This document shows positions 2,337 through 33,197 of a stretch of DNA of 64,000 nt, piece by piece (within the stretch, counting starts at the first letter, position 1; every line of letters starts with the position of its first letter). Both the position numbers and the translations under genes were made by a program. The notes beneath the pieces were generated by a model. The model was not told the DNA's origin. It saw nothing but the letters and a program-made list of their open reading frames with translations, and made no database searches. This DNA is from a bacterium. GTDB taxonomy: Bacteria > UBA8248 > JACPRG01 > G963555815. Where the stretch lies: the NCBI GenBank assembly GCA_965261595.1, contig CBDHDG010000006.1, forward strand, positions 32,001 through 96,000. Reading direction: 5' to 3'.

Positions 2337-4075
2337 GTGAATCACCATGAGCTTTTCCTTTCCCCCAAAGTGGTGATCGCCTACATCCTTGGCCGCCGGC
2401 TGATTCCGAAGACCGCCTTCGGCCGGGCTCACCGGGAATCCGGGCGCGGGGACCTCGGGCTTCTCCTTTCGACCTTCATCGCCCTCAGCCTGATCCTCAT
2501 CATCGCCCGCTCTCTGATTTTCGTGGCGCCGGCCGCCGTCCTGCTGTTCATCGGAGGGATCCGCCTCCTGGCCGGACAACCCCGCCGGCGCGTTCAGGCC
2601 GCCGCTGCGGGGCTGGCGGGAATCCTCACGGCATAGGTGATTTGGGGACTGATTGCGCTCCCCCACGTCCGCCTGGATTACTATTATTTTATCCGGAAGG
2701 CCCCGCTGCGGAAAATCACGCGGCCCGGCAAGCTCCCCCCCCCCCCCCTCACATCATCTTCATCGTGGTGGACACCCTTCGCTCGGACCATCTGAACGCC
2801 TACGGGTATTCCAAAGACACTTCACCCGTCATCTCCCGGCTGGCCCGGGAGGGGATTCGCTTCACGAGATTCCGCGCGAATTCCAACGAGACGTCACAGA
2901 CGGTGGCCTCCCTTTTGACCGGACGGCATCCCTCGGGGCACGGTCTCCTCCGCCTGGGAGACCCCCTGCCCGAGGGCGCCCCCCTGCTCACAGAAGTCCT
3001 CCAAAACCGGGGGTGCAACACGGCGTTCTTTACGCCCCACTGGTTTATCGATGGGCGCCCCAACTTCGAACGGGGCGCGGACTACCCCTACAGCGCATGG
3101 GAAGAGACGCCGTTCCGAATGGCGGGCGCCCAACAACTCTTCGTCTGGCTCAAGTTGACGGCGGCCTGGCCCGGCCTGAGCCATGCCCTTCAATGGCTGG
3201 ACATGAAGAAGAACGACCTCCTCTTGGCCGGCCTCGGGTTGCGAGCCATGGAATCCGCCGACCGGTTCACGGACAAGGTCCTGGGTTTCATGGATTACGC
3301 CACCGGCCGGAGGGATTACGACCCGGACCGGGACCGCTTCTTCCTGTTCCTTTTCTTCCACGACCTCCACTGGCCTCGGTGCCTCCCCAAGCCTTACCAT
3401 CGGATGTACGACCCCGAATACAACGGCCCGGAAATCTGTAGGAAGGAAGGCGCGCGCGATGTCCGGGAGGCCAAAAATGAAGTCGCCCGATACAACGGCG
3501 CGCTCCGGTTCGTGGACGGCCAGGTGGGCCGACTCCTCGACAAAATGAAATCCGTAGGCTGGCTCGATCAATCACTCGTCGTGATCACCTCGGACCACGG
3601 AGAGAAATTCGGCGCCGGCGGTGAGTTCGGCCACGGCGAAACGATGTGGGAGGATCTGGTCCGGATTCCTCTGATCCTCTGGTAGCCTTCCCGCTGGAAA
3701 AACGGCCAATCCGTCGGCGGCGTCGCCGAACAGGTGGACCTGATGCCGACCCTCCTCGATCTGCTGCGCATCCCTCGCCCCGCCGGGATTCAAGGACGAA
3801 GCCTGCTCACCGATCGGGGGTCCTTCCCCGCCGCGACGAACCGTTCAACCGCTTTCGGCGAGGCCGAAACGGAAACGGGCGGGTATCATTACCTCCTGCG
3901 CGACGGGTGGAAGCTTCTCCTCGGCCTCGGAAGACCGAAGCGGCTTTTCAACCTCAAAATGGATCCCGGTGAAAAGAAAAACCTATACGGCCGCCAGCCC
4001 CGAACCGGTGATATGGAGAAAGCCCTGAAGCAACGGATCCAGCGGGCGCGCCGGGCGGCCCCAAAGGGCCCTTGA
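2337..4075 (+). pseudogene. Membrane-anchored sulfatase-like hydrolase, interrupted
   Basis: Hydrophobic N-terminus, then IVVDTLRSDHL, SLLTGRHP, ITSDHGE, GHG and VDLMPTLLDLL. Interrupted by in-frame TAG at 2634-2636 and 3683-3685 and a frameshift in the poly-C run near 2735-2748. Confidence 0.75.
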
Positions 4076-4615
4076 TTCACCGGGCGCCATTGCCTGTCAT
4101 GCGGCGCGTTTCCAATCGGGGGTCAACCGGCCCGCGTGAAGAATTTGCCGCGCGACCCCTTTTCGGAAATCACGAGCGGCGCCGGAAATCTCTTCATTAC
4201 GGACCGGCCGGCCTGTCGAAATCCCGACGGATTTCCGACATCCCGCGATGAATTCACACCAAGCGTCCGCGAAATTCAATCAACGCCCGGCGGAAATCTT
4301 CTCCAAGGCGAACACCTAACCCATTATTTCAAAATGCCTTATGAGAATTCAGGAGATCTCCCTGGCCGATTTCCAGTGCTCTGGCACAGAAATTGAACCT
4401 ACCCACAAGTATATCAGTGTCCCATTTGATGAAAATTGCCGGTCCAAGTCCGGGAATCGTGATCGATCGAGCCGATCTTCTCCACGAAAAAATCGGCTTC
4501 GAGCGAGGTCCCGGCTTCACAATTCACCTGGCCGCGGGAGCGTTTTCTTCTACCGTTGGAAGGAAGTGCGAGCCGCCCATCCCGAATCAACGGGAGAGGG
4601 GGAGGGGGAGGGGAA

Positions 4616-5446
4616 ATGCGCACCGAGGACGGCACCGGCCATGCCGGTGACATCCTATTGCAAGGGCCGGCGCGGGGCGAATCCGCGAAAGGCCTCGCCC
4701 AGGCCCGCGAGAACGGCGGACCCCTTCCCCGGCGCGAACCCGGCCGGCACGAAGCCCTTCGCCCCCAGAATCTCGGCGAGATCTCGGGCCCTTTCTGCCA
4801 CAATTTGAACAACCTACTGAATCACATCATCGGATCTCTGAACCTCATGATGACCAAGGAAGAAGGCCCGCACGAATGGGTCGAAAGCCTGGGAGAGATC
4901 GAGAAGACCGCCCAGGAGGCGGCCGAGCTCAACGGCCAGCTCGCCTCTCTCGTCCACCGCGAGGAGGGAGATCGAAAAGAACCGGTTCATCTCGGCCATC
5001 TGCTTCTGGGAGTCATCCATTTGACCGGACAATTTCCGAGCCGAAGAACCAAGCTGAATTATCACATCGAGCCGGATCTTCCGCCGGTCTATGCGAATCC
5101 GGCCGTTCTGGAGCAAGCGATCCTGTCTCTTCTTTTGGCCGCGAATCGATACGATGGGGTGAAAAGTCTGGTGTTCGCCTCAGCCGATCGAATCGACGGA
5201 GCCCTCTCATCCGAGGCGAAGGTCCGCGTCTACATCTCCCGCACCCCGGTCCGCGGAAATCCCCAGGCGTCGCCGTCCCGAAACATGCCGGAGCCGACGC
5301 CGACACACCCGAGCCTGCCGATAGTCGAGTCCATCATCCGCTCGCTCGGGGGCGAGGCGTCTTTTTCGATCACCGCCGACGAAGGGTTGGAATTCGAGAT
5401 CATCCTTCCGGCCGCGTCCCGGGACCAACCCGCAGAGCGGAACTAG
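4616..5446 (+). CDS. Histidine-kinase-like protein with degenerate ATPase domain
   Basis: The H-box CHNLNNLL and terminal GGEASF..EGLEFEIILP are present. N, G1 and G2 boxes are not recognisable. Confidence 0.65.
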   Translation: MRTEDGTGHAGDILLQGPARGESAKGLAQARENGGPLPRREPGRHEALRPQNLGEISGPFCHNLNNLLNHIIGSLNLMMTKEEGPHEWVESLGEIEKTAQEAAELNGQLASLVHREEGDRKEPVHLGHLLLGVIHLTGQFPSRRTKLNYHIEPDLPPVYANPAVLEQAILSLLLAANRYDGVKSLVFASADRIDGALSSEAKVRVYISRTPVRGNPQASPSRNMPEPTPTHPSLPIVESIIRSLGGEASFSITADEGLEFEIILPAASRDQPAERN

Positions 5447-5451
5447 CGCCC

Positions 5452-5802
5452 ATGGAAGAACACAAACACATGCGCCCCACAGTCCTCATCGTCGACGATG
5501 AATCCACAACACGGAATCTGGTCTCCAAGTTTCTCAACCGGGAGGGGTACCGAACGCTGACGGCCAAGGACGGGCCGGAAGCCCTGGAACTCTACGCGCT
5601 GAAGCAATCCGAGATTGATGTGACGCTTCTGGACGCGATGATGCCGGGAATGGACGGCTTTGAAACCATGGTCGCCATCCGGGAAATCGATCCGGATGCG
5701 GAATTCATCCTCTCCAGCGGCTTCCCGAAAGAGGTCTTCGCCGAATCGAACCTGAGCGGCGCTTTGCTGAAAAGCGCCGCCGGGTCCGGTCAGCCTCTCT
5801 GA
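5452..5802 (+). CDS. Single-domain response regulator
   Basis: VLIVDDE, LLDAMMPGMDG, ILSSG; the C-terminus is short or atypical. Confidence 0.8.
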   Translation: MEEHKHMRPTVLIVDDESTTRNLVSKFLNREGYRTLTAKDGPEALELYALKQSEIDVTLLDAMMPGMDGFETMVAIREIDPDAEFILSSGFPKEVFAESNLSGALLKSAAGSGQPL

Positions 5803-6191
5803 ACCCATCCTCGGGGCGTCCATTCCACCCCGGATTCGCGGACGGCCGTCCCGGGACCCCGCCGCGCTTGAGAGAAACCGGACCCCTGGTGAAAACCAGA
5901 GCGCGGCTCTCCGCGGCCGGACTTGCTCGACGGATGACCGGAACGCGCCCGCGCCCTTTCCCAAATTCCTGAGAAATTCGGGCTGAAATCATGTAAGATA
6001 CGTGTAGAGAAGGATCTTCCCGAGGACGGCCTGCGGGTTCTCTCACCACGGCGATTCCGGACGCCCCCCTGCCGGAGATCCAACCCATCACTCTCTCTTC
6101 CGAGCACACCGGGAGATCGCGCCCTTCCGCGCGGCCGGAATCTTTTGACACCGCCCCGGCCCCGCTCGATGGAACGGCGGCGTTCGAATCG

Positions 6192-8708
6192 ATGCGGACC
6201 GGCGTCTCCCCTCCCCCTCCCCCCTCCTGCCCCCCGCGTCCGGCCTCGCGGTTCGAAGCTCAGATTGATCTGCCCATCACCGGAATGTCCAACCTCGCGC
6301 GCGCATCCAGGCTGGAGAAAAATCTCTCGGCCACTCCGGGCGTCTCCTACGCCGGCGTGAACATCGAGACCGAGCGCGCCACCGTCCACTATGACCCGCG
6401 ATGGGTAACGGTTCTCCAGCTTGTCCGATGCGTGGAGGAAAGCGGCGGCGGCGTTGCCGCCGTCCGAACGACCCTGGCCGTTCAGGGATTGTCGTGCGGC
6501 TCCCGCGTATCGGACATCGAGCGGGCGCTCCGGGACGTCCCGGGCGTCCTGTCGGCGAACGTCAACCCGGCAACGGGCAGGGCGACGGTGGAATCCCTGC
6601 CCGGTCTTTCCGGCGAATCCGACCTGCGGGCCGCCATCAAGTCGGCCGGGCACAGTGTGTTGGAGGCCCCCGAAACGGAGCTCGCCGACCGGGAGGAGGA
6701 GGCGCGCAATCGCGAGGCCCGCTCCCTGTCCGCCGGATCTATCCTCGCCGGGACGCTTTCAGTCTTCATTGTTCTGGGGAGCATGGAGGGGGTGTCGACC
6801 CTCGTGGGGCCATGGCTCCCGAGCGTCTACCTCCTCTGGCTCTTGGCGACCCCCGTCCAGTTTTACGCCGGCCGGACCTTCTACCGGGGGGCCTGGGCGG
6901 CCGCGCGGCGCTGGGGCGCGGACGGGAACACCCTCATCGCCCTCGGGATCTCGACCGTCTACTTCTACAGCGCGGCCGCGGTTCTCTTTCCGGATTTCCT
7001 GCGCGGGATCGGCGACGAGCCCCGTCCGCATTTCGACGCCGCGGCGATCATGACCACCCTCATCCTCCTCGGCCGGCGGATCGAGGCCGCGGCCCGGGGA
7101 AGGAGCCGGGCGGCCGCCAAAAATCTCCGGGCGCTTCGGCCGAAGACCGTCCGCATTTTCCATGATGGCCGCGAGTGGGACATCCCCGCCGACCAGGTCC
7201 GGATCGAAAGCCGGGTTCTGGTCGGCCCCGGGGAGCGGGTTCCCGCGGATGGGGTCATCGTGGCGGGAGGGTCGAGTCTCGACGAATCCGGCGCGGCGGG
7301 CGGACGTCCCCCCGTGAACAAGGGCGTCGGCGACAAGGTGTTCGCCGGCGCGTTGAACATGACGGACCGCTTCCTGTTCGAAGTCCGGGCGGCCGGCCCG
7401 GAAACCGCGCTGGCCCGAACCGTCAAGCGGTTGGAAAACGCGCAAGGGCGCCCCGCCCCCATCCAGACCGCGGCTGGCCGGCCGGCCGCGGTCTTCGTTC
7501 CGGCGGTGATCGGGACGGCTCTCATCGCATTCACCCTCTGGCTGCTTCTCGGGCCGGCGCCCGCGTTCCACTCGGCGCTGTTGAGCTTTGCGGCGGTCCT
7601 GATCGTCGCCTCCCCGTGCGCTTTGGCGTTTGCGGCGCCGTCCGCCGTCCAGGTGGGCACGGGGCGCGGAGCGGAGAGCGGCATCCTGATCCGGGGCGGA
7701 GAAGCGCTGGAGGCGGCCTCCGGGATTCAAACCGTCATTTTTGAAAAGACGGGCGTCCTGACCGAGGGCAAACCCGAAGTGACGGACCTGATCACCGCCC
7801 ACGGATTCTCGGCCGAAGAGGTCCTGCGTCTCGCGGGATCCGCGGAGCGGCCATCCGGGCATCCCCTGGGGATCGCGATCTTGGACAAGGCCCGGCAGAG
7901 CGGCGTGGCCCTTACGGCCGCGGAAGGTTTCTCCGCCGTTGCGGGCCGCGGCGTCCGCGCCGCCGTGGAAGGGCGATCCATCGTTCTGGGAAACGCCGAA
8001 TTGATGGAGGCCGAAGGGGTGGACATCTCCGGCCTGCGCAACGCCATCGAAGTCCAGACCGAGAAGGGAAAGACCCCTGTGCTCCTCGCCGTCGACGGGG
8101 TTTCGGCCGCCCTGCTGGCGGCGGCGGACCCCTTGAAGGAGAGCGCCCGCGAGACCATCGAGAGACTTCACCGGATGGGTCTCGAAACCGTTCTGCTCAC
8201 CGGGGGCCACCGCCGCTCCGCCCAAGTCATCGCCGAGGAAGCGGGCGTCGGGCGCGTCCTGGCGGAGGTCCCCCCAGAGGACAAGGCCCGGGAGATCCTG
8301 CGTCTGCAGGGGGAGGGGGAGGGAAAAAGGGCGGCCATCGTAAGCAACGGCTTCCGCGAAGCCCCGGCCTCGGCGGACCTCGGAATCTCCATCGGGACCG
8401 GACCGGACGGCGGAAGAGGGAGGGATGGGGGGGTCTCGGACATCACCCTGATCGGCCGGGACCCCATGGACGTGGTGAACGCGATCCGTCTCAGCCGCCG
8501 TACGCTGAGGACCGTCAAACAGAACCTGTTTTGGGCATTCGCCTACAACGCGACCGCCATCCCCCTCGCCGCCGGCGCACTGCACCCCCTTTTCGGGTCG
8601 GCCCCGAGTCCGGTGGCGGCTTCCCTCGCCCTGGCCGCCGGCTCGGCCTTCGTCCTCTGGAACAGCCTGCGGCTGCGGCGCTTCCGGCCCGTGGAATTCA
8701 AGCCGTAA
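6192..8708 (+). CDS. CopA-like P1B heavy-metal ATPase homologue with degenerate catalytic motifs
   Basis: Two HMA-like domains, TM segments, GERVPADG, KQNLFWAFAYN and NSLRL. It has EKTGVLT in place of DKTGTLT, and other motifs are altered. Confidence 0.85.
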   Translation: MRTGVSPPPPPSCPPRPASRFEAQIDLPITGMSNLARASRLEKNLSATPGVSYAGVNIETERATVHYDPRWVTVLQLVRCVEESGGGVAAVRTTLAVQGLSCGSRVSDIERALRDVPGVLSANVNPATGRATVESLPGLSGESDLRAAIKSAGHSVLEAPETELADREEEARNREARSLSAGSILAGTLSVFIVLGSMEGVSTLVGPWLPSVYLLWLLATPVQFYAGRTFYRGAWAAARRWGADGNTLIALGISTVYFYSAAAVLFPDFLRGIGDEPRPHFDAAAIMTTLILLGRRIEAAARGRSRAAAKNLRALRPKTVRIFHDGREWDIPADQVRIESRVLVGPGERVPADGVIVAGGSSLDESGAAGGRPPVNKGVGDKVFAGALNMTDRFLFEVRAAGPETALARTVKRLENAQGRPAPIQTAAGRPAAVFVPAVIGTALIAFTLWLLLGPAPAFHSALLSFAAVLIVASPCALAFAAPSAVQVGTGRGAESGILIRGGEALEAASGIQTVIFEKTGVLTEGKPEVTDLITAHGFSAEEVLRLAGSAERPSGHPLGIAILDKARQSGVALTAAEGFSAVAGRGVRAAVEGRSIVLGNAELMEAEGVDISGLRNAIEVQTEKGKTPVLLAVDGVSAALLAAADPLKESARETIERLHRMGLETVLLTGGHRRSAQVIAEEAGVGRVLAEVPPEDKAREILRLQGEGEGKRAAIVSNGFREAPASADLGISIGTGPDGGRGRDGGVSDITLIGRDPMDVVNAIRLSRRTLRTVKQNLFWAFAYNATAIPLAAGALHPLFGSAPSPVAASLALAAGSAFVLWNSLRLRRFRPVEFKP

Positions 8709-27519: not shown

Positions 27520-28482
27520 TCAATCTTGTTCCGAAACCCGGCCGATCTCGCCCTCCACAAGCTCTCCCGGGAGCTGGAAGACCACATTTTCATCCGGGCC
27601 TTCAGACTCCCGGACCTCCCGGATTCCTCTTTTCCTGAGGGTGTCGACGAGCTCCTTGACCAGGAACTCCGGCGTCGAGGCGCCGGCTGTGATCCCGACC
27701 CTCTCGGCCCCGTCGAACCAAGCCGGGTCGAGGTCCGCCACCCCGTCGATCAGGTAGGCCCGGACGCCGACGGACTCGGCCACCTCTTTGAGGCGCATGG
27801 AGTTCGAGCTGTTCTGCGACCCCAACACCAGGAACAGGTCCACCTGTCCGGCCATCTCCCTGACCGCCTTCTGGCGGTTCGTGGTCGCATAGCAGATGTC
27901 CTCCTTGGCCGGAAGCGTGAGGTCCGGAAATTTCCTTTTGAGGGCCGAGACGACTTCGGCGGTGTCGTCCACGCTGAGCGTCGTCTGCGTCAGGCAGACC
28001 ACCTTTTGGGGATCGGGGACGGCCAGCCCATCCACCTCCTCGGCCTGGTGGATCACGGTGATGTGGTCCGGGGCCTCCCCGTACGTTCCGATCACTTCAT
28101 CGTGATCCATGTGGCCGACCAGGATGATGGAAAACCCGTCGCGGACGTAGCGCCGGACTTCGCTGTGGACCTTCGTGACCAGCGGGCAGGTGGCGTCCAG
28201 GGCCTTGAGGTTTCGCCGACCGGCCTCTTCCACCACCGATGGCGCGATGCCGTGGGCGCTGAAGATGGTGATGGCCCCTTCCGGCACTTCGTCCAACTCC
28301 TCGACGAAAATAGCCCCCTTCTTTTTCAGGTCTTCCACGACATGTTTGTTATGGACGATTTCCTTCCGGACGTAAATGGGCGTCCCGTAGATATCCAGGG
28401 CCCGCTCCACCACCTCGATGGCGCGGTCCACCCCGGCGCAGAATCCCCTCGGTTTCGATAAAACCAGCTCATGAAACGCCAT
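27520..28482 (-). CDS. ispH: 4-hydroxy-3-methylbut-2-enyl diphosphate reductase
   Basis: PRGFCAGV, IVHN, SAHG, DATCPLV, TQTTLS, DICYATTNRQ, NSSNS, TAGASTP. Confidence 0.97.
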   Translation of the reverse strand: MAFHELVLSKPRGFCAGVDRAIEVVERALDIYGTPIYVRKEIVHNKHVVEDLKKKGAIFVEELDEVPEGAITIFSAHGIAPSVVEEAGRRNLKALDATCPLVTKVHSEVRRYVRDGFSIILVGHMDHDEVIGTYGEAPDHITVIHQAEEVDGLAVPDPQKVVCLTQTTLSVDDTAEVVSALKRKFPDLTLPAKEDICYATTNRQKAVREMAGQVDLFLVLGSQNSSNSMRLKEVAESVGVRAYLIDGVADLDPAWFDGAERVGITAGASTPEFLVKELVDTLRKRGIREVRESEGPDENVVFQLPGELVEGEIGRVSEQD

Positions 28483-28657
28483 CAAAAACTCCTTCTCGGC
28501 CCGCACCGGCCGGGCGCGCCATCGTTCACCGAATCCCCAATTATTTTACCATGAGTTCCGGAATTCATCCCACGGCGCTCCCGATTGGTAGTGGTCTAGT
28601 GGAGTTGACCCGGTTTGGTGGACACCTGATGATTTGGGGGTAAAGGAGGTGTTCACG

Positions 28658-28972
28658 ATGCCACAGACTCACCCACGCTATCCAATGGAGTTCCGCTGCC
28701 AGATGGTAGAGTTGGTCCGGGCGGGACGCACGCCCGAGGCGCTGGCGCACGAGTTCGAGCCCTCGGCGCAGACGATCCGCACCTGGGCCCATCAAGCCGA
28801 CGTTGACGAGGGGCGTCGCAAAGACGGGCTCACGAGCGATGAGCGGGAGGAGTTGCGCCGACTTCGCCGCGAGAACCGACAGCTCCGCCAGGAGCGGGAG
28901 ATCTTAGCAAAAGCCGCGGCCTGGTTTGCTCGGGATACCGATTCGATCCCGTCCGGATCTACGGGTTCGTGA
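28658..28972 (+). CDS. IS3 transposase OrfA
   Basis: HTH plus EELRRLRRENRQLRQEREILAKAAAWF. Slippery AAAAG at 28909-28913. Confidence 0.9.
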   Translation: MPQTHPRYPMEFRCQMVELVRAGRTPEALAHEFEPSAQTIRTWAHQADVDEGRRKDGLTSDEREELRRLRRENRQLRQEREILAKAAAWFARDTDSIPSGSTGS

Positions 28973-29817
28973 GGGCGAACCAGGCCATGTATCGGACCGC
29001 CACCATGTGCCGGGTGCTGGGCGTCTCCTCCAGCGGCTACTACGCGTGGCGCAGGCGCGCGCCGTGTGCCCGCTCGTGTGCCGATCGGGCGCTCACCAAA
29101 CGCATTCAGGCGATCCACGAGCGTTCTCGGGGGACTTACGGCGTGCCGCGCGTCCATGCCGAGTTGGAGGCTGAGGGAGTGCGTGTGGGCCGCAAGCGCG
29201 TCGCCAGGCTGATGCGTGGGGCGGGACTTGCGGGCGTCAGTCGGCGCAAGGGAGCGCGCACGACGCAGCGCCGGCAGGAGGCGCGGCCGGCCCCTGATCT
29301 GGTGGACCGCAACTTCACGGCCGAGGCCCCCGACCGGCTGTGGGTGGCCGACATCACCTACGTTCCGACATGGGCGGGGTTTTTGTATCTGGCCGTGGCG
29401 CTCGATGCGTTCAGCCGGCGCATCGTGGGGTGGTCGATGGCCACACACCTGCGGGCCGAGTTGGTGCTCGACGCGCTCGACATGGCGCTGTATAAGCGCC
29501 GTCCCCGGGCCGTCATCCACCACTCCGACCAGGGCACGCAGTACACCTCGGTCGCCTTTGGGCAGCGCTGCCGGCAGGCGGGCGTGCGTCCCTCCATGGG
29601 TTCGGTCGGGGACTGCTACGACAACGCGCTGTGTGAGAGCTTTTTCGCCACGCTGGAGTGCGAGCTCCTCGCTCGCCACAGTTTCCGCACCCGGGCCGAG
29701 GCGCGCATGGAGGTGTTCGGGTTCATCGAGGGCTTCTACAACCCGCATCGTCGGCACTCCTCCATCGACAACCTGTCACCCGTTAACTACGAAAGGAGAC
29801 AACAACGCACACCCTGA
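28969..29817 (+). CDS. IS3 transposase OrfB (DDE)
   Basis: WVADITY, HHSDQGTQY, DNALCESFF, YNPHRRHS. Confidence 0.93.
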   Translation: MRANQAMYRTATMCRVLGVSSSGYYAWRRRAPCARSCADRALTKRIQAIHERSRGTYGVPRVHAELEAEGVRVGRKRVARLMRGAGLAGVSRRKGARTTQRRQEARPAPDLVDRNFTAEAPDRLWVADITYVPTWAGFLYLAVALDAFSRRIVGWSMATHLRAELVLDALDMALYKRRPRAVIHHSDQGTQYTSVAFGQRCRQAGVRPSMGSVGDCYDNALCESFFATLECELLARHSFRTRAEARMEVFGFIEGFYNPHRRHSSIDNLSPVNYERRQQRTP

Positions 29818-29859
29818 AAACCCAAGTGCTTAACTCTCCACGAAACCGGGGTAAGTCCA

Positions 29860-29939
29860 CCATGGCTGCCGCCATATTTTCTGATTACATTGTCGTGAGA
29901 ATCAAGAACGTTCTGGACAGTCAAAAAAAATGGGGTCAT
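29860..29939 (-). pseudogene. N-terminal stub of a Doc/Fic-family toxin, cut by IS3
   Basis: ATG at 29939 gives MTPFFLTVQNVLDSHDNVIRKYGGSHG, matching the Doc N-terminus pattern (FLT...V..H...I..YGG..G). The frame enters the IS3 end at 29859. Not in the ORF track. Confidence 0.7.
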
Positions 29940-29948
29940 TTGGGCCGA

Positions 29949-29984
29949 AAAAAGGCCACAGCGAACACTCGCTGTGGCCTTTTT
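29949..29984. terminator. Perfect 16-bp hairpin with A/T tails between the antitoxin and toxin genes
   Basis: AAAAAGGCCACAGCGA-ACAC-TCGCTGTGGCCTTTTT. Confidence 0.75.
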
Positions 29985-30000
29985 CTCCTTCCTGGGAAAT

Positions 30001-30543
30001 CTATTTGGCTAGTGCCTCGAAATCCTTCCTGTATCTTGTGTGGATTTTCTCTCGGGCCCTTTCCAAAACCAATTCCCTTTGCTTTTTCATAACACCAGAA
30101 ACATCAAGGGGTTGATATTGCTCAGAACTCTTCATCGGGGCAGTCCCATAGACCTGTTGTAGGAATAGTCCAAATGAAAGGTGCCAAGTCTGACTAATCA
30201 ACTTCTTGAGCATGTCCCTAACCTCTTCAGGAAGATGTAAATCCTCTGGGGGTTTGGGAGCGATCCACTCATACCAACGTTTCCGTGTCCCAAATGGGGT
30301 CGTATCTGCCCAGACTTTTACTTTCTCTTCTTTTTCAAGGGTTTTCACGGACCCATCTGCGTCTGGAACAAATGGGCCGTAATCATCCCAAAACCATTGA
30401 ATATCTGTGAGTTGTTCCCCACGTCTCCATGCCCATTCGACATCGGCGAGATAGAGTAGTTTTGTAAGTCGAGCCCTGGTAAGCTCATCCGGCTTCGGGT
30501 ACTCTGAGATCACGAACGCCACCAAATCCTTTAACGTTGCCAT
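30001..30543 (-). CDS. Panacea (DUF4065/SocA/GepA) antitoxin with Phd-like C-terminal helix
   Basis: RLTKLLYLAD, WDDYGPF, VYGTAPM; C-terminus REKIHTRYRKDFEALAK. Confidence 0.85.
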   Translation of the reverse strand: MATLKDLVAFVISEYPKPDELTRARLTKLLYLADVEWAWRRGEQLTDIQWFWDDYGPFVPDADGSVKTLEKEEKVKVWADTTPFGTRKRWYEWIAPKPPEDLHLPEEVRDMLKKLISQTWHLSFGLFLQQVYGTAPMKSSEQYQPLDVSGVMKKQRELVLERAREKIHTRYRKDFEALAK

Positions 30544-30630
30544 TTGCCGACCCCTCCTAAATTCAATAGTAGTCCTCAAATTCAAGGCACGTCAAATCAT
30601 TTTCTGCATTGCGAAAAGAATATGGATATT

Positions 30631-30673
30631 TAGATACGTATCTATTGACAGGCAATATGTAATGGGCTATATT
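30631..30673 (+). promoter_or_regulatory. Sigma70 promoter with abutting palindromic operator
   Basis: TTGACA (30645-30650), 17-nt spacer, TATATT (30668-30673). Perfect palindrome TAGATACGTATCTA at 30631-30644. Confidence 0.75.
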
Positions 30674-30698
30674 GGTTATCGACACTGGGAGAAAAATC

Positions 30699-31139
30699 AT
30701 GAATTTCCTTGAATCCGTAGAAGCTCAAATCAAAATCCTCAAACACGAGGAAGCCATTGTCCTGAAAGAGATGGCACCGCTCCAGAACAAACTTGAGTTA
30801 ATGAGGCTCCAAATAGCCCACCTGGATGGGTATTTGACTACCCTTGGTTCAGGGGTGCTAGGCGGGGCAACCACTGAAAAAGAACCCATTACCGAAAAGA
30901 TTGTTCGTGTCTTTGAGCGTTCGAAAAGCCCCCTCCACTACATGGAGGTCATGGATTTGCTTGAAACGCAAGAGGGCTTCGTGCTGGGCGGTAAAGACCC
31001 CAAAGCCAATATGACCGCTAAGCTCGCTGGAAGCGCCAAGTTCAAGCGCCTGGAGCGTGGAGTCTATATCCTGTCGGAGTGGGCGGAAAAAGAGGAATCC
31101 CCAGCAAGTGAGGAACCTGCTGGGGATTCCAATGATTAG
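30699..31139 (+). CDS. Coiled-coil plus winged HTH (HARE-HTH-like) protein
   Basis: Heptad-rich N-terminus; KSPLHYMEV...GKDPKANMTAKL...FKRLERGVYILSEW; GGGAG RBS. Confidence 0.75.
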   Translation: MNFLESVEAQIKILKHEEAIVLKEMAPLQNKLELMRLQIAHLDGYLTTLGSGVLGGATTEKEPITEKIVRVFERSKSPLHYMEVMDLLETQEGFVLGGKDPKANMTAKLAGSAKFKRLERGVYILSEWAEKEESPASEEPAGDSND

Positions 31140-31140
31140 C

Positions 31141-31233
31141 GGCGGGGTGGCTGAGTGGCTTATAGCGTGGGATTTATAATCCCTTGGTCGGTGCTTACCC
31201 ACCGGCACGCAGGTTCGAATCCTGTCCCTGCCG
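31141..31233 (+). tRNA. Class-II (long variable arm) tRNA-like gene, anticodon UAU, Ser-like body
   Basis: Acceptor GGCGGGG/CCCTGCC; D arm GCT-GAGTGGCTTAT-AGC; anticodon arm (T)GGGA-TTTATAA-TCCC(T) with TAT at 31175-31177; variable stem GTCGGTG/CACCGGC; T arm GCAGG-TTCGAAT-CCTGT; discriminator G followed by CCT. Confidence 0.85.
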
Positions 31234-31247
31234 CCTATAATTTCTAG

Positions 31248-31282
31248 TGGGTCTCAAGGGTGCAGACACACCCAAGAGACCC
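31248..31282 (+). other. Stem-loop downstream of the tRNA-like gene
   Basis: GGGTCTC-aa-GGGTG-cagaca-CACCC-aa-GAGACCC. Confidence 0.5.
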
Positions 31283-31409
31283 TTGGTCACACCATCCGGG
31301 AGCACCCGAACAATGCAACCCGACACCCCTCAAGATACTCCTTTAAATCTGGAGAATCAAGCGGAATGTGACGGGCATTGCTCCTGGACCACCAAGGGAG
31401 CATCCGTCA

Positions 31410-32228
31410 ATGAACCGCCTTCACCGATCTCGACAGGTCCAGATTCTCTCAATGCTCACTGAGGGTGTGAGCATCTGCGCCATCTCCCGAATCACCGGAG
31501 TCCACAAGGTCACGATTCTCAAGCTCTTGAAGGAAACGAGCGAGAAGTGTGAGGCTCTGCTGGATTCCAAGATGCGGGATATCCCGGCAAAGGAAATCCA
31601 GGCCGACGAAATCTGGACGTACGTTGCTAAGAAGCAACGAAAAGTCCGAAGTTCCGATGGACGGGGGGTAGGCGATCAATTCATCTTCGTGGCCCTGGAA
31701 GCGGAAACCAAGCTCGTCCCTTGCTACGCCGTGGGGAAACGGGACGCCCTCACCGCCACTCGGTTCATGATGGATCTGCGACGACGGATTCAGGGCAGGG
31801 TGCAGTTGACCACGGATGCTTTCCGCCCCTATCCCGATGCCGTTGAAAGGGCTTTCGGGGCGGATGTGGATTACGCCCAACTCATAAAGGCGTTCCGGTC
31901 CAATGGATTCACAAGGGAGGTCTACAACCCAAGCGATATAATTGAGACAATCCCGATAACCATAATGGGAAACCCGAACAAGCGGTCAATCTCAACCAGC
32001 TACATTGAGCGGCAGAATTTGACCATGCGGATGCAGATGCGCCGCCTCACTCGGCTGACGAATGGATTCAGCAAAAAGCTGGATAACTTGAAGGCGGCCT
32101 TGGCGTTACACTTCGCCTGGTACAATTTCGGGCGGATTCATCAGACCTTGAAGGTCACGCCCGCGATGGAATCGGGGATCACGGACCATCTGTGGGGATG
32201 GGAAGATATCATGGATTGGTCAAACTAG
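31410..32228 (+). CDS. IS1-family transposase (single ORF)
   Basis: N-terminal HTH, IQADEIWTYV, VGKRD, LTTDAF, STSYIERQNLTMR..RRLTRLTNGFSKK; the stop lies in the right IR. Confidence 0.92.
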   Translation: MNRLHRSRQVQILSMLTEGVSICAISRITGVHKVTILKLLKETSEKCEALLDSKMRDIPAKEIQADEIWTYVAKKQRKVRSSDGRGVGDQFIFVALEAETKLVPCYAVGKRDALTATRFMMDLRRRIQGRVQLTTDAFRPYPDAVERAFGADVDYAQLIKAFRSNGFTREVYNPSDIIETIPITIMGNPNKRSISTSYIERQNLTMRMQMRRLTRLTNGFSKKLDNLKAALALHFAWYNFGRIHQTLKVTPAMESGITDHLWGWEDIMDWSN

Positions 32229-32284
32229 ACCACTACCTCCCGATTCTCCGGCTTGCCGGGAAGGCGTCCGACCCACGCCGAAAG

Positions 32285-32926
32285 TCACGCCCCGGGGCGG
32301 CCTGACGGGGGCATGCGCGTCAGCCTGAAAAGAACCAACAATCCCTCTTCCCAGCGCTCGATCCCCAGCCCCCGCGCGGGCAGCGTATCGACGGCTTCGG
32401 CGACCGTCATCGGACCCGTCTCGTGGAGGCCGCCGAACTCGGCGTGGACCTCGGCCAACAGGTCGAGACCGGCGGGGTTCATGTCCGCCACGACGACCCG
32501 CCCCCCCGGGCGGCAGACGCGAATCATTTCCCCGACGGCCCGGGCGGGCTCAGTCATGTGGTGAATCAGGTTCGCCGACGCCACCAGGTCGAAGCTTTCT
32601 TCCGGAAAAGGCAGCCGCGCGGCGTCCCCCTGGAGAAAGCGAATCCGGTCCTCCACCCCGGCCGCCCGCGCGTTGCGCCGGGCGACCTCGATCCCCTCCC
32701 CTTCGAACTCGATGGTGGCGACCCCCGCCCCCCCCCTCCCTCCCTCTTTCGCGAGAAGAATGGCCAGACGCCCCGGCCCGGTTCCCACGTCCAGAACCTC
32801 GCCCGCCACCGGCCGGCCGCATTCGACCACGCGGGACCGCATCGCGTCCACGTCGTAGCCCCGCTGCCGGAGCACGCGACGGCGGTCCTCCTGGTCGCCG
32901 AATCCCTTTTCCACGCTATCGGCCAT
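32285..32926 (-). CDS. Class I SAM-dependent methyltransferase
   Basis: VLDVGTGPG, GDAARLPFPEESFDLV, EMIRVCRPGG. Confidence 0.9.
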   Translation of the reverse strand: MADSVEKGFGDQEDRRRVLRQRGYDVDAMRSRVVECGRPVAGEVLDVGTGPGRLAILLAKEGGRGGAGVATIEFEGEGIEVARRNARAAGVEDRIRFLQGDAARLPFPEESFDLVASANLIHHMTEPARAVGEMIRVCRPGGRVVVADMNPAGLDLLAEVHAEFGGLHETGPMTVAEAVDTLPARGLGIERWEEGLLVLFRLTRMPPSGRPGA

Positions 32927-33197
32927 TCTCACTCCCTCACCCCGCGTTCGGCGGGCTTTCATCGACATGAAACTTCGGCCGCCCCTCATTCACGTATTGA
33001 CGCGGGACGCCGCTCCCCTTTACCGTTATTGATTGTGCCCGAATCGCCCGCAAACGGCAATCCGCCGCTCCCGGACGCGGATCCCGGCGGCCGGGCTCCA
33101 TCAGCGGACCCACCATCCGGCGGGCCGGGCCGGGTCCTTTGTGATTCGGGGGTCCACGTCCGCCCAATCCCCATCGCCTGGAAGGACCCATCCAAAG

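Follow-up and report, generated by a model that had tools for sequence, protein, structure and literature searches.

A class-II tRNA(UAU) gene and its recurrent slot upstream of the transposase in IS1-family cargo elements

The DNA considered here is a 64,000-nucleotide stretch of a bacterial genome (GTDB lineage Bacteria; UBA8248; JACPRG01; G963555815), which corresponds to positions 32,001 to 96,000 of contig CBDHDG010000006.1 in assembly GCA_965261595.1 and is referred to at its full length as the window. Between positions 28587 and 32237 it contains a 3.65-kb insertion sequence of the IS1 family that carries, in addition to its transposase gene, a class-II tRNA gene with the anticodon UAU. 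The element is organised in two divergent units. The rightward unit consists of a sigma-70 promoter, a helix-turn-helix (HTH) gene, the tRNA(UAU) gene and the transposase gene, in this order, while the leftward unit contains only a gene for a Panacea-domain protein. An IS3-family insertion sequence is nested in the left part of the element. This architecture can be considered highly probable. tRNA genes are found at the same place and on the same strand in a subset of related loci, and the tRNA may represent a selected cargo that is active in translation.

The element is delimited by inverted repeats of 14 nt that are 100% complementary, located at 28587–28600 on the + strand (GGTAGTGGTCTAGT) and at 32224–32237 on the - strand. 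The 8-bp sequence TCCCGATT adjoins both outer ends, as direct reading at 28579–28586 and 32238–32245 shows. An earlier note on this DNA, made from the letters alone, had described a single IS1-family insertion with 13-bp inverted repeats and an 8-bp target duplication; the single insertion and the duplication hold, and the repeats are real and perfect, but their length is 14 nt. A scan for inverted repeats with at least 11 of 14 matches and an adjoining direct repeat of 8–9 bp gave these repeats and this duplication as the only match in the element region of the window, and a perfect 14-nt repeat with an adjoining 8-nt duplication is expected by chance about 4e-5 times (own arithmetic, for pairs within 10 kb in 64 kb). 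The full extent of the right repeat is probably about 18 nt (GGTAGTGGTCTAGTTTGA on the - strand). The region 28587–32237 is thus one insertion of a cargo-carrying insertion sequence of the IS1 family. It lies between ispH (27520–28506, - strand, LYTB 322 bits) and a methyltransferase gene (32285–32989, - strand), interrupts no gene and is single-copy within the window. With 48% G+C in the cargo and 55% in the transposase gene, compared to 62% in the window, its interior is compositionally foreign.

The transposase gene (31410–32228, + strand) is an intact single open reading frame (ORF) of 272 aa; its ATG is preceded by AGGGAG and its stop codon, TAG, lies within the right inverted repeat. The protein matches PF03400 (DDE_Tnp_IS1) with 27.5 bits, above the cut-off of 24.1, in agreement with the family originally assigned to it, and its best NCBIfam family is IS1, with 72.9 bits and below the cut-off of 100. 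All 8000 scored candidates in the search for relatives matched at E ≤ 1e-3, many of them named IS1 family transposase, and the residues D66, D136 and E200 are invariant in the transposase alignment (A1). As in other members of the family, the repeats start with GGT (GGTAGTG...) and the target duplication falls in the range of 8–9 bp. The two-frame insA/insB' frameshift arrangement is not present, and the single uninterrupted ORF places the element in the single-ORF branch of the IS1 family. It differs in this from classical IS1, which has a length of about 770 bp, the insA/insB' frameshift and no cargo. ISfinder lists IS1-family elements that carry passenger genes, and the single-ORF subgroup in which they occur is presumably its ISMhu11 group. 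This subgroup shares with the window element the DDE domain, the GGT... repeats, duplications of 8–9 bp, one ORF with an N-terminal HTH and a length of more than 2 kb, whereas the passengers of the window element comprise a tRNA and an HTH gene of its own upstream of the transposase gene.

The rightward unit starts with the promoter TTGACA-17-TATATT (30645–30673, + strand), which matches the consensus at 11 of 12 positions and confirms the sigma-70 promoter noted before. The HTH gene follows at 30699–31139, and its stop codon, TAG, ends 1 nt short of the tRNA gene. A consensus scan of the + strand from the promoter to the 3' end of the transposase gene found no terminator-like site, and the HTH gene, the tRNA and the transposase gene are therefore taken as one transcription unit.

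The tRNA gene (31141–31235, + strand, 95 nt) was detected by ARAGORN and reaches 54.2 bits with Rfam RF00005 (cut-off 29, E 4.4e-10), which substantiates the UAU-anticodon tRNA gene proposed for this position. It has a 7-bp acceptor stem with one G-U pair, a 4-bp D stem, a 7-bp variable-arm stem and a 5-bp T stem. The anticodon loop UUUAUAA contains the anticodon UAU together with U33 and A37, the T loop is TTCGAAT, the discriminator is G73, and the CC of the CCA end is encoded. The conserved tertiary nucleotides U8, A14, G18G19, U33, A37, T54-psi55-C56 and A58 are all present by direct reading. The Rfam and ARAGORN alignments agree on a 7/5 arrangement of acceptor and T stems, and the molecule is thus not an allo-tRNA of the 8/4 or 9/3 type; an eighth acceptor pair would be U-U, and the alternative pair C(-1):G73 would produce an 8/5 form, which is not an allo-tRNA form either. 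A blastn search of the tRNA against phages and Escherichia coli genomes gave no match.

Several features of this tRNA point to serine as its amino acid. SerRS ignores the anticodon and recognises a long variable arm, G73, G2:C71 and C11:G24, all of which are present in the window tRNA by direct reading. LeuRS and TyrRS require A73. A73 is also an Ile identity element in E. coli, and IleRS substrates are class-I tRNAs with A73; a class-II tRNA-Ile is not known. The body of a tRNA-Ile(UAU) is not matched by a class-II molecule with a 7-bp variable-arm stem and G73. The combination of long variable arm and G73 therefore makes serine the likeliest charge, such that the tRNA would be a Ser-inserting reader of AUA. 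That it is matured and aminoacylated at all seems somewhat more probable than the opposite. AUA is rare in the host: in 32 long ORFs, picked mechanically as a proxy for host codon usage, it accounts for 48 of 13,634 codons (3.5 per 1000). The corresponding ATA codon is present in 4 of the 273 codons of the transposase gene (14.7 per 1000) and in 1 of the 147 codons of the HTH gene, and is absent from the Panacea gene.

The occurrence of tRNAs in related elements was analysed in the best 80 of 505 confirmed transposase matches (587 stretches), which have 43–58% identity and do not represent a census; transposase relatives of 66–90% identity, seen as proteins, fall outside these 80 loci. The loci derive from Acidobacteriota, Pseudomonadota, Verrucomicrobiota, Thermodesulfobacteriota, Methylomirabilota and other phyla. 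With ARAGORN at default settings, 14 of the 80 contain a tRNA on the same strand within 700 nt upstream of the transposase gene, and none contains one on the opposite strand. The background of 20 tRNAs in 1.02 Mb corresponds to 0.007 per 700 nt and strand, and about 0.5 would be expected over the 75 loci with enough sequence; the excess in the slot is about 27-fold. The remark that a tRNA gene is unusual as cargo of an IS1-type element hence needs correcting. The slot tRNAs score above the Rfam gathering threshold in 10 of the 14 loci (31–58 bits). The tRNA lies inside recognisable inverted repeats in the window and in the relatives L003 and L073; in 12 further tRNA-bearing loci, blastn-short detected no inverted repeats.

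The anticodons of the 14 slot tRNAs are UUA in six cases and CUA, GGA, GGC, UAC, GCU, GUA, ACA and UUG in one case each. Half of them (six UUA and one CUA) would pair with stop codons, and these seven tRNAs are built on three dissimilar scaffolds, as judged by our own reading of the alignment and the pairwise identities. CUA and UUA both occur within one tRNA type, that of L012, L029 and L031. The Leu-like UUA tRNAs of L003, L044 and L073 show compensatory double changes in 9 of 24 base pairs around an invariant anticodon arm. The excess of stop-codon anticodons on different scaffolds, together with stems that covary around a fixed anticodon arm, suggests that the anticodon is used, and these sequence patterns argue for an anticodon under selection rather than one that drifts. 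In other loci, the tRNA body fits its anticodon: L013 contains a class-II tRNA with GGA (Ser), L059 a class-II tRNA with GUA (Tyr) and L004 a class-I tRNA with UUG (Gln). In a MAFFT alignment of 16 slot tRNAs (A3), the anticodon and variable arms were misaligned, and the alignment was not used for a covariance model.

Five further candidates (L018, L031, L043, L049 and L061) were obtained with a T-loop motif and relaxed ARAGORN settings, but as all of them score below the Rfam gathering threshold, they were rejected as slot tRNAs and kept out of the main count. Four of these sequences (L018, L031, L043 and L049) are irregular and tRNA-like, with only a good T arm retained, and those of L031, L043 and L049 lie inside the inverted repeats of their elements. 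The tRNA-like sequence of L049 (6155–6266) has a length of about 112 nt and is located in a bounded element at 3351–8077 with the duplication TTGACGCT. Its acceptor stem is Ser-like (GGAGAGG...CCTCTCC, followed by G73), its T arm is good and its extra region is oversized, which recalls the five-stem-junction forms mentioned by Mukai et al. (PMC5389517).

In a transposase tree from which three loci had been dropped (stop codons or short length), the presence of the tRNA is patchy, and well-supported branches force at least 10 gains or losses. Its clustering on the tree was reached in 23 of 500 shuffles. The window transposase groups with P0002 (90% identical), P0004, P0005, L022 and L050; the tRNA of L050 is a class-II molecule with the anticodon UAC, one base from UAU. 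The joint occurrence of Panacea gene, HTH gene and tRNA, which the earlier note had proposed to look for in homologous elements, was found in none of the 80 relatives. An HTH-family gene and a tRNA occur together in three loci (L013, L059 and L078), while L073 combines a tRNA with a pair of Gp49 and XRE genes that resembles a toxin-antitoxin system.

These observations could be explained if the tRNA is a selected cargo that acts in translation as a recoding tRNA and is not the partner of a toxin. As judged from sequence, this reading has a probability of about 45%. The tRNA would share a transcript with the HTH gene and the transposase gene, and the strand-fixed slot points to expression with the transposase. 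The window tRNA, itself structurally canonical, would be one of the irregular tRNAs of soil bacteria that act as mis-sense readers or nonsense suppressors. SerRS would charge it despite its UAU anticodon, and AUA, the rarest Ile codon of the 62% G+C host, would be read as Ser at some low level. In this clade of the IS1 family, the place of such tRNAs would recur directly upstream of the transposase gene and always on its strand. The gain for the element might consist of a least-harm drift towards codons that are rare in the host, an effect on A+T-rich invaders or an interplay with ribosome-dependent toxins such as Gp49 in L073; the UUA tRNAs of L029 and L031 fit none of the three neatly.

Several points weigh against a recoding tRNA. 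Four of the 14 slot tRNAs (L012, L028, L029 and L059) fail the Rfam threshold, and those that pass, with 31–58 bits, stay below the 66–75 bits of host tRNAs in the same loci. No in-frame transposase stop codon that would need suppression was found in the seven UUA or CUA loci or in L031 with its irregular tRNA; TAA terminates the transposase gene in 6 of 15 loci with a tRNA and in 23 of 65 loci without one, which is no clear difference. The UUA carriers L029 and L031 are A+T-rich loci (37% G+C upstream), in which an active ochre suppressor would be costly. The anticodon stem of the window tRNA contains a U-U mismatch, its fold energy is unexceptional (z -1.63), and its structure is without covariation support, the nearest slot tRNAs being only 51–62% identical. 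That the amino acid is serine, given charging, is a prediction from general identity rules and no more than probable. As the ATA codons 177 and 185 of the transposase gene are at conserved hydrophobic positions, an efficient insertion of serine would harm the element itself. Finally, none of six allo-tRNA(UAU) species suppressed amber in E. coli after conversion to CUA, and two were toxic, as stated by Mukai et al. 2017 (PMC5389517). These six are 8/4 molecules and thus unlike the window tRNA, but by analogy they warn that UAU tRNAs may not translate.

tRNA and suppressor-tRNA genes are carried by phages and other mobile elements. The window element is alike in bringing its own tRNA, and so are its relatives in bringing readers of stop codons. 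It differs in that the carrier is a DDE insertion sequence of 2–5 kb and in that no recoded genes accompany the tRNA, the transposase genes being without in-frame stops.

A closer parallel is provided by the irregular tRNAs of soil bacteria, which include allo-tRNA(UAU) and are loosely linked to transposable elements and toxin-antitoxin loci according to Mukai et al. 2017 (PMC5389517). There, allo-tRNA(UAU) is the commonest allo-tRNA, a statement that is repeated in a 2020 review (PMC7609411). The irregular tRNAs of soil Acidobacteria, with allo-tRNA(UAU) among them, share with the window tRNA the long variable arm, the discriminator G73 and UAU as an anticodon that is not one of serine, and both are tied to a transposable element and a gene of toxin-antitoxin type (PMC5389517). 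The UUA tRNAs of L003, L044 and L073 closely match the tRNA2, tRNALeu (7/5) entries of this source. Near-identical tRNA2, tRNALeu (7/5) UUA sequences occur in soil metatranscriptomes according to its supplement and are thus transcribed (PMC5389517). The window tRNA differs by its 7/5 arrangement from the 8/4 or 9/3 arrangement of allo-tRNAs with their 12-bp acceptor branch. Its anticodon-arm string is not in the published table, where the loop TTTATAA appears once, in an unlike sequence. The available text names no insertion sequence family, the words IS1 and transposase are not in the supplement, and neither contains a fixed slot upstream of an IS1-family transposase or an HTH companion gene (PMC5389517).

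Descriptions of tRNA genes as IS1-family passengers were not found in the literature; subscription journals and Figures 4A and S5 of Mukai et al. lay outside this search and may bear on the point. Within the same scope, nothing was found in print on an IS1-family clade that acts as carrier with a fixed upstream slot, often behind a winged-helix gene, or on canonical 7/5 class-II UAU tRNAs in such a slot. What purpose the irregular, mis-sense and nonsense-suppressor tRNAs serve in soil bacteria has been under question since 2017, with the loose link to transposons and toxin-antitoxin loci as the sole published hint. The window and its relatives turn this hint into a defined and testable unit, i.e., a bounded IS1-family element with a fixed tRNA slot, which a winged-helix gene often precedes. 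Active tRNAs would mean that insertion sequences spread slight alterations of codon meaning from phylum to phylum, and processing signals would represent a novel means by which an insertion sequence controls its transposase. Both outcomes would be of interest to the fields of the genetic code and of mobile DNA.

A wider version of the recoding explanation, which appears rather unlikely in its entirety, would see this IS1-family clade of soil and sediment bacteria as a widespread mobile carrier of active code-altering tRNAs, expressed as one unit with the transposase and a dedicated winged-helix protein. The set would extend from ochre suppressors of the Leu type and amber suppressors to the Ser-type AUA reader of the window. 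Recoding would serve as a tool for addiction or against A+T-rich invaders, and cargo of toxin-antitoxin type (Panacea in the window, Gp49/XRE in L073) would modulate the resulting stress.

The chief rival to a recoding tRNA, unlikely but by no means far-fetched, is a tRNA-shaped module for RNA processing or insulation between the upstream gene and the transposase gene, with no part in decoding. Cleavage of the transcript by RNase P and 3' trimming would uncouple the transposase from upstream transcription and leave a short-lived mRNA. In favour of such a module, orientation and place are strict, as the 14 slot tRNAs, all on the transposase strand, are always located between cargo and transposase. 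In the window, the HTH stop codon directly precedes the tRNA, the + strand has no promoter-like site in the interval that separates the tRNA from the transposase gene, and no terminator-like site is found from the promoter at 30645 to the transposase gene. A processing role would also agree with Rfam scores below those of host tRNAs and, in 4 of 14 cases, below the threshold, with the degenerate variants of L018, L031, L043 and L049 that keep only a good T arm, and with the translational inactivity of the six allo-tRNA(UAU) variants of Mukai et al. (PMC5389517). The anticodons are harder to reconcile with it. They should drift in a processing signal, but seven of the 14 correspond to stop codons and are distributed over three scaffolds, and in the Leu-like group the anticodon arm is invariant while the stems covary. 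In addition, the window tRNA keeps U33, A37 and all nucleotides of the tertiary contacts, which are needless for processing alone.

A recoding function would also be dispensable if the tRNA is an ordinary, Ile-charged decoding supply as in phages, serving the A+T-richer genes of the element in a G+C-rich host with a scarce AUA decoder. The main support for this explanation, which is improbable overall, comes from the two transposase ATA codons at conserved hydrophobic positions, where AUA is needed as Ile. The ATA frequencies of the transposase gene and the HTH gene relative to the host proxy, and the 48% G+C of the cargo in a 62% host, point in the same direction, and some slot tRNAs of relatives have a body that fits the anticodon (L013, L059 and L004). 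The anticodon is, moreover, the main identity element for IleRS. Yet, by the identity rules, a class-II form with G73 fits no known tRNA-Ile. The Panacea gene has no ATA codon to be served, and the UUA and CUA tRNAs in the slot of relatives are left unexplained.

Slightly less probable still is a functionless hitch-hiker or decaying pseudogene that was captured with neighbouring DNA in a dead element. The window element is single-copy and its left repeat is truncated by the IS3 insertion, and the patchy distribution on the tree, with at least 10 gains or losses and 23 of 500 shuffles as clustered, would be compatible with passive capture. An allo-tRNA(UAU) pseudogene that overlaps a transposon-related ORF is also described by Mukai et al. 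(PMC5389517). Passive capture does not account for an approximately 27-fold excess with complete strand bias or for the compensatory changes in the Leu-like group. The window tRNA has an intact cloverleaf with its conserved nucleotides kept, and the transposase, HTH and Panacea ORFs are all intact.

The earlier note had arrived at a different module, with a leftward Panacea antitoxin and a Doc-like toxin that, together with the unusual tRNA, would act on translation. The region assigned to the toxin is an IS3-family insertion sequence of 1,260 bp on the + strand (28600–29859), as identified by Pfam, NCBIfam and the alignment of its ends. It contains orfA (28658–28972, + strand; Pfam HTH_Tnp_1) and orfB (28969–29817, + strand; Pfam HTH_21, rve, rve_3 and rve_2), which overlap in the -1 frame, as orfA ends at 28972 and orfB starts at 28969. 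OrfB reaches 97.4 bits with rve and 353.7 bits with NCBIfam transpos_IS3 (cut-off 160). The ends are imperfect inverted repeats with TG...CA (TGGAGTTGACCCGGTTTGGTGGAC and ...GTCCA, i.e., TGGAG...GTCCA), and the G+C content is 66%, compared to 48% in the cargo. The supposed toxin gene, a long - strand ORF at 28792–29757, is a shadow frame in this G+C-rich DNA, with zero Pfam matches at E up to 10. A Fic/Doc domain was not found in any ORF of the element by Pfam at the same E limit, with both strands of 28600–29859 searched. The Doc-like toxin was therefore rejected as an artefact of a G+C-rich IS3 transposase read on the wrong strand.

The IS3 element interrupts the left inverted repeat of the IS1-family element, which it cuts after nt 14. 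The match between left and right repeats ends at this position, whereas the repeats of relatives have 17–25 nt and the form GGTAGTGnnnnAnTTTGA, and the expected continuation ...TTTGA is missing from the DNA after IS3. This DNA is an 89-nt remnant (29860–29948) that extends from the IS3 end to a terminator-like hairpin and does not continue the left repeat. A target duplication of 3–5 bp was not found at the IS3 ends (flanks CTAG and CCAT), nor was a second copy of the IS3 element in the window. Because the duplication is missing and the left repeat is not continued, the IS3 insertion was probably associated with a deletion of adjoining cargo that crippled the host element, which is now probably immobile. 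A recombination subsequent to the insertion might likewise explain the missing duplication.

The Panacea gene (30001–30543, - strand, 180 aa) starts with an ATG downstream of AGGAGG, and its product matches PF13274 (SocA/DUF4065) with 30.0 bits, above the cut-off of 25.7. Only the domain part of the antitoxin assignment thus stands, as no toxin gene is adjacent or in an operon with it. Upstream are the divergent promoter and the HTH gene; downstream, 16 nt past the stop codon, lies a bidirectional terminator-like hairpin (29949–29984) with a perfect, 100% complementary 16-bp stem, a 4-nt loop and flanking runs of A and T, followed by the 89 nt and IS3. The hairpin was called a terminator by eye and was not listed by the consensus scan. 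PADLOC gave no match in the element, and the Panacea protein is also without an NCBIfam match. Its homologues form 3 clusters in a set of 5.8 billion proteins, one of them 97% identical on a 3-kb contig. No Panacea relative was detected in the 80 related loci with the Panacea HMM and tblastn, or by BLASTP among the cargo ORFs of 29 loci. The gene has no operon partner and is unlikely ever to have had one; the lost left part of the element could have held other cargo.

Panacea antitoxins have been validated beside toxins that include Fic/Doc and the tRNA-modifying toxSAS, and transposases are frequent near Panacea loci, according to Kurata et al. 2022 (PMC8832971). The window gene resembles the PanA/Panacea antitoxins of this source in its domain, which is above the Pfam threshold, in its location on a mobile element and in the adjoining transposase, but it differs in having no adjacent toxin or operon partner and in belonging to a tiny family of 3 clusters (PMC8832971). 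In the absence of a Doc toxin, the Panacea gene is solitary and no toxin-antitoxin pair is present, a module of toxin plus tRNA has no toxin to rest on, and an antitoxin function of the gene is unsupported. A Panacea antitoxin that restrains a Doc toxin directed at EF-Tu and works with the tRNA in phage defence or element maintenance is thus highly improbable: the Panacea domain is real, its published partners and frequent transposase neighbours would fit (PMC8832971), relatives carry Gp49 with XRE, PIN, NYN, a restriction-modification pair and Schlafen/AlbA_2, and the IS3-linked deletion could have taken left cargo, but the element lacks a Fic/Doc domain, the DNA assigned to the toxin encodes an IS3 transposase on the other strand, the gene is enclosed by a hairpin and a divergent promoter, PADLOC gave no match, and Panacea relatives are found in 0 of 80 loci.

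The Panacea and HTH genes are separated by a divergent control region of 155 nt. The divergent promoter region (30566–30673) was located by a promoter consensus scan, which lists 4 promoter-like sites against 1.6 expected. In addition to the + strand promoter, a weaker one, TTGACG-18-TACTAT (30595–30566, - strand), matches the consensus at 9 of 12 positions.

The HTH gene encodes a protein of 146 aa, and its ATG is preceded by GGGAG at a distance of 7 nt. The AlphaFold2 model of the protein (pLDDT 73.6, pTM 0.41) consists of a long N-terminal helix (residues 3–50, pLDDT 86–95) and a winged helix (64–130). In a Foldseek search against the Protein Data Bank (PDB), N-domains of RNA polymerase delta and forkhead domains ranked at the top, with E values of at least 0.035 and no match at E ≤ 0.001. 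Four family members score 16.3 (window), 13.2, 20.0 and 24.2 bits with HARE-HTH (PF05066), all in the same C-terminal region and below the cut-off of 25.9, and HARE-HTH is present on 14% of the members of one of the three nearest Atlas clusters. A coiled-coil/HARE-HTH gene had been proposed at this position; the coiled-coil/winged-helix gene is there, while the HARE-HTH match remains below the threshold. A coiled coil plus a HARE-HTH-like winged helix, short of a family assignment, is a fair description of the modelled protein. Close matches are limited to 4 clusters at the word-index level, but a four-member profile retrieved 288 clusters at E ≤ 1e-3 and 34 at E ≤ 1e-10 from 1.84 billion representatives, mostly of 130–180 aa and aligned from end to end.

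By BLASTP, no relative of the window HTH protein was found among the cargo ORFs of 29 loci, and plasmids gave no match. An HMM of the family, built from 121 of 154 sequences (100–215 aa), was searched against 5,292 ORFs of at least 60 aa in the 80 loci and produced 8 matches at E < 0.05, in L046, L013, L038, L049, L059, L010 and L078, all on the transposase strand. Seven of them lie 177–721 nt upstream of the transposase gene; the eighth, at 1,867 nt, is the second copy in the tandem duplication of L059. An HMM of the domain alone was less sensitive than the full-length one (2 matches). By eye, similar helix-plus-HTH ORFs precede the transposase gene in L003, L004, L015, L024, L028 and L048, with no significant Pfam match. 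The bounded element of L015 (1,966 bp) contains an HTH-like ORF and the transposase gene only, and in L010 the HTH-like gene directly adjoins the host genes efp and mreB. Since HTH gene and transposase gene alone make up the smallest relatives, the HTH protein is most likely a DNA-binding accessory or regulator of the element itself rather than cargo.

A near-perfect 16-bp hairpin (GGAATCCCCAGCAAGT / ACCTGCTGGGGATTCC; 31094–31130) lies within the last 15 codons of the HTH gene, before the tRNA. A T-rich run follows it on the - strand, where it scores as terminator-like; a block to antisense transcription or a part in processing are possible roles. All three genes of the element (HTH, Panacea and transposase) end with TAG; the 32 host-proxy ORFs end with TGA in 21, TAA in 6 and TAG in 5 cases.

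GGTAGTG-type repeats with a perfect duplication of 8–9 bp were found in 13 of the related loci; two more have a 7/8 duplication and one lies at a contig edge. These 16 bounded relatives have lengths of 1,966 to 4,727 bp, while most copies from Acidobacteria are without recognisable ends. The relatives carry diverse cargo, for the most part genes of defence or toxin-antitoxin type, including PIN, NYN, Schlafen/AlbA_2, a Tsp45I restriction-modification pair, P63C, Gp49 with XRE, M78 peptidase with XRE and a ClpP-like protease, and the clade gives the impression of a vehicle that moves small genes of these two types. Individual examples are a Tsp45I-like restriction enzyme with an N6/N4 methylase (L043, 4512–6324), a NYN RNase (L031, 5285–5818), a PIN protein (L008, 5880–6467) and a Schlafen/AlbA_2-HATPase protein (L017, 4896–6311). 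Plasmids contain 8 weak transposase matches of at most 48% identity; the four that were inspected have other cargo and only about 45–125 nt before the transposase gene, too little for a tRNA.

Further features recur in subsets of the relatives. A small + strand ORF of about 80–95 aa with an N-terminal motif like KRPRDLNQLA adjoins the left repeat in at least 7 relatives (L019, L048, L055, L058, L064, L073 and L076, a BLASTP cluster) and is without a Pfam match. In several relatives, a TTGACA-type promoter upstream of the transposase gene overlaps the operator-like palindrome TGCTTGA-n-TCAAGCA (L024, about 7870–7910; L038, about 7960–7995; L048, about 7950–7990), which is not found in the window. 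For P0005, a transposase of 66% identity, the annotation includes a 68-aa N-terminal extension in which the string GTNP is located 60 codons ahead of the true start. The corresponding frame of the window encodes GSNP where it crosses the T arm of the tRNA, 66 codons ahead of the transposase start, and the P0005 genome, which also encodes the HTH relative P0124, may hold a tRNA-like sequence in the slot. In L059, a module of XRE HTH, MT-A70-like methyltransferase ORF, coiled-coil HTH gene and 93-nt class-II tRNA(GUA) is present in tandem (5754–6280 and 7428–7954), with a truncated transposase copy (6327–6728) between the two modules.

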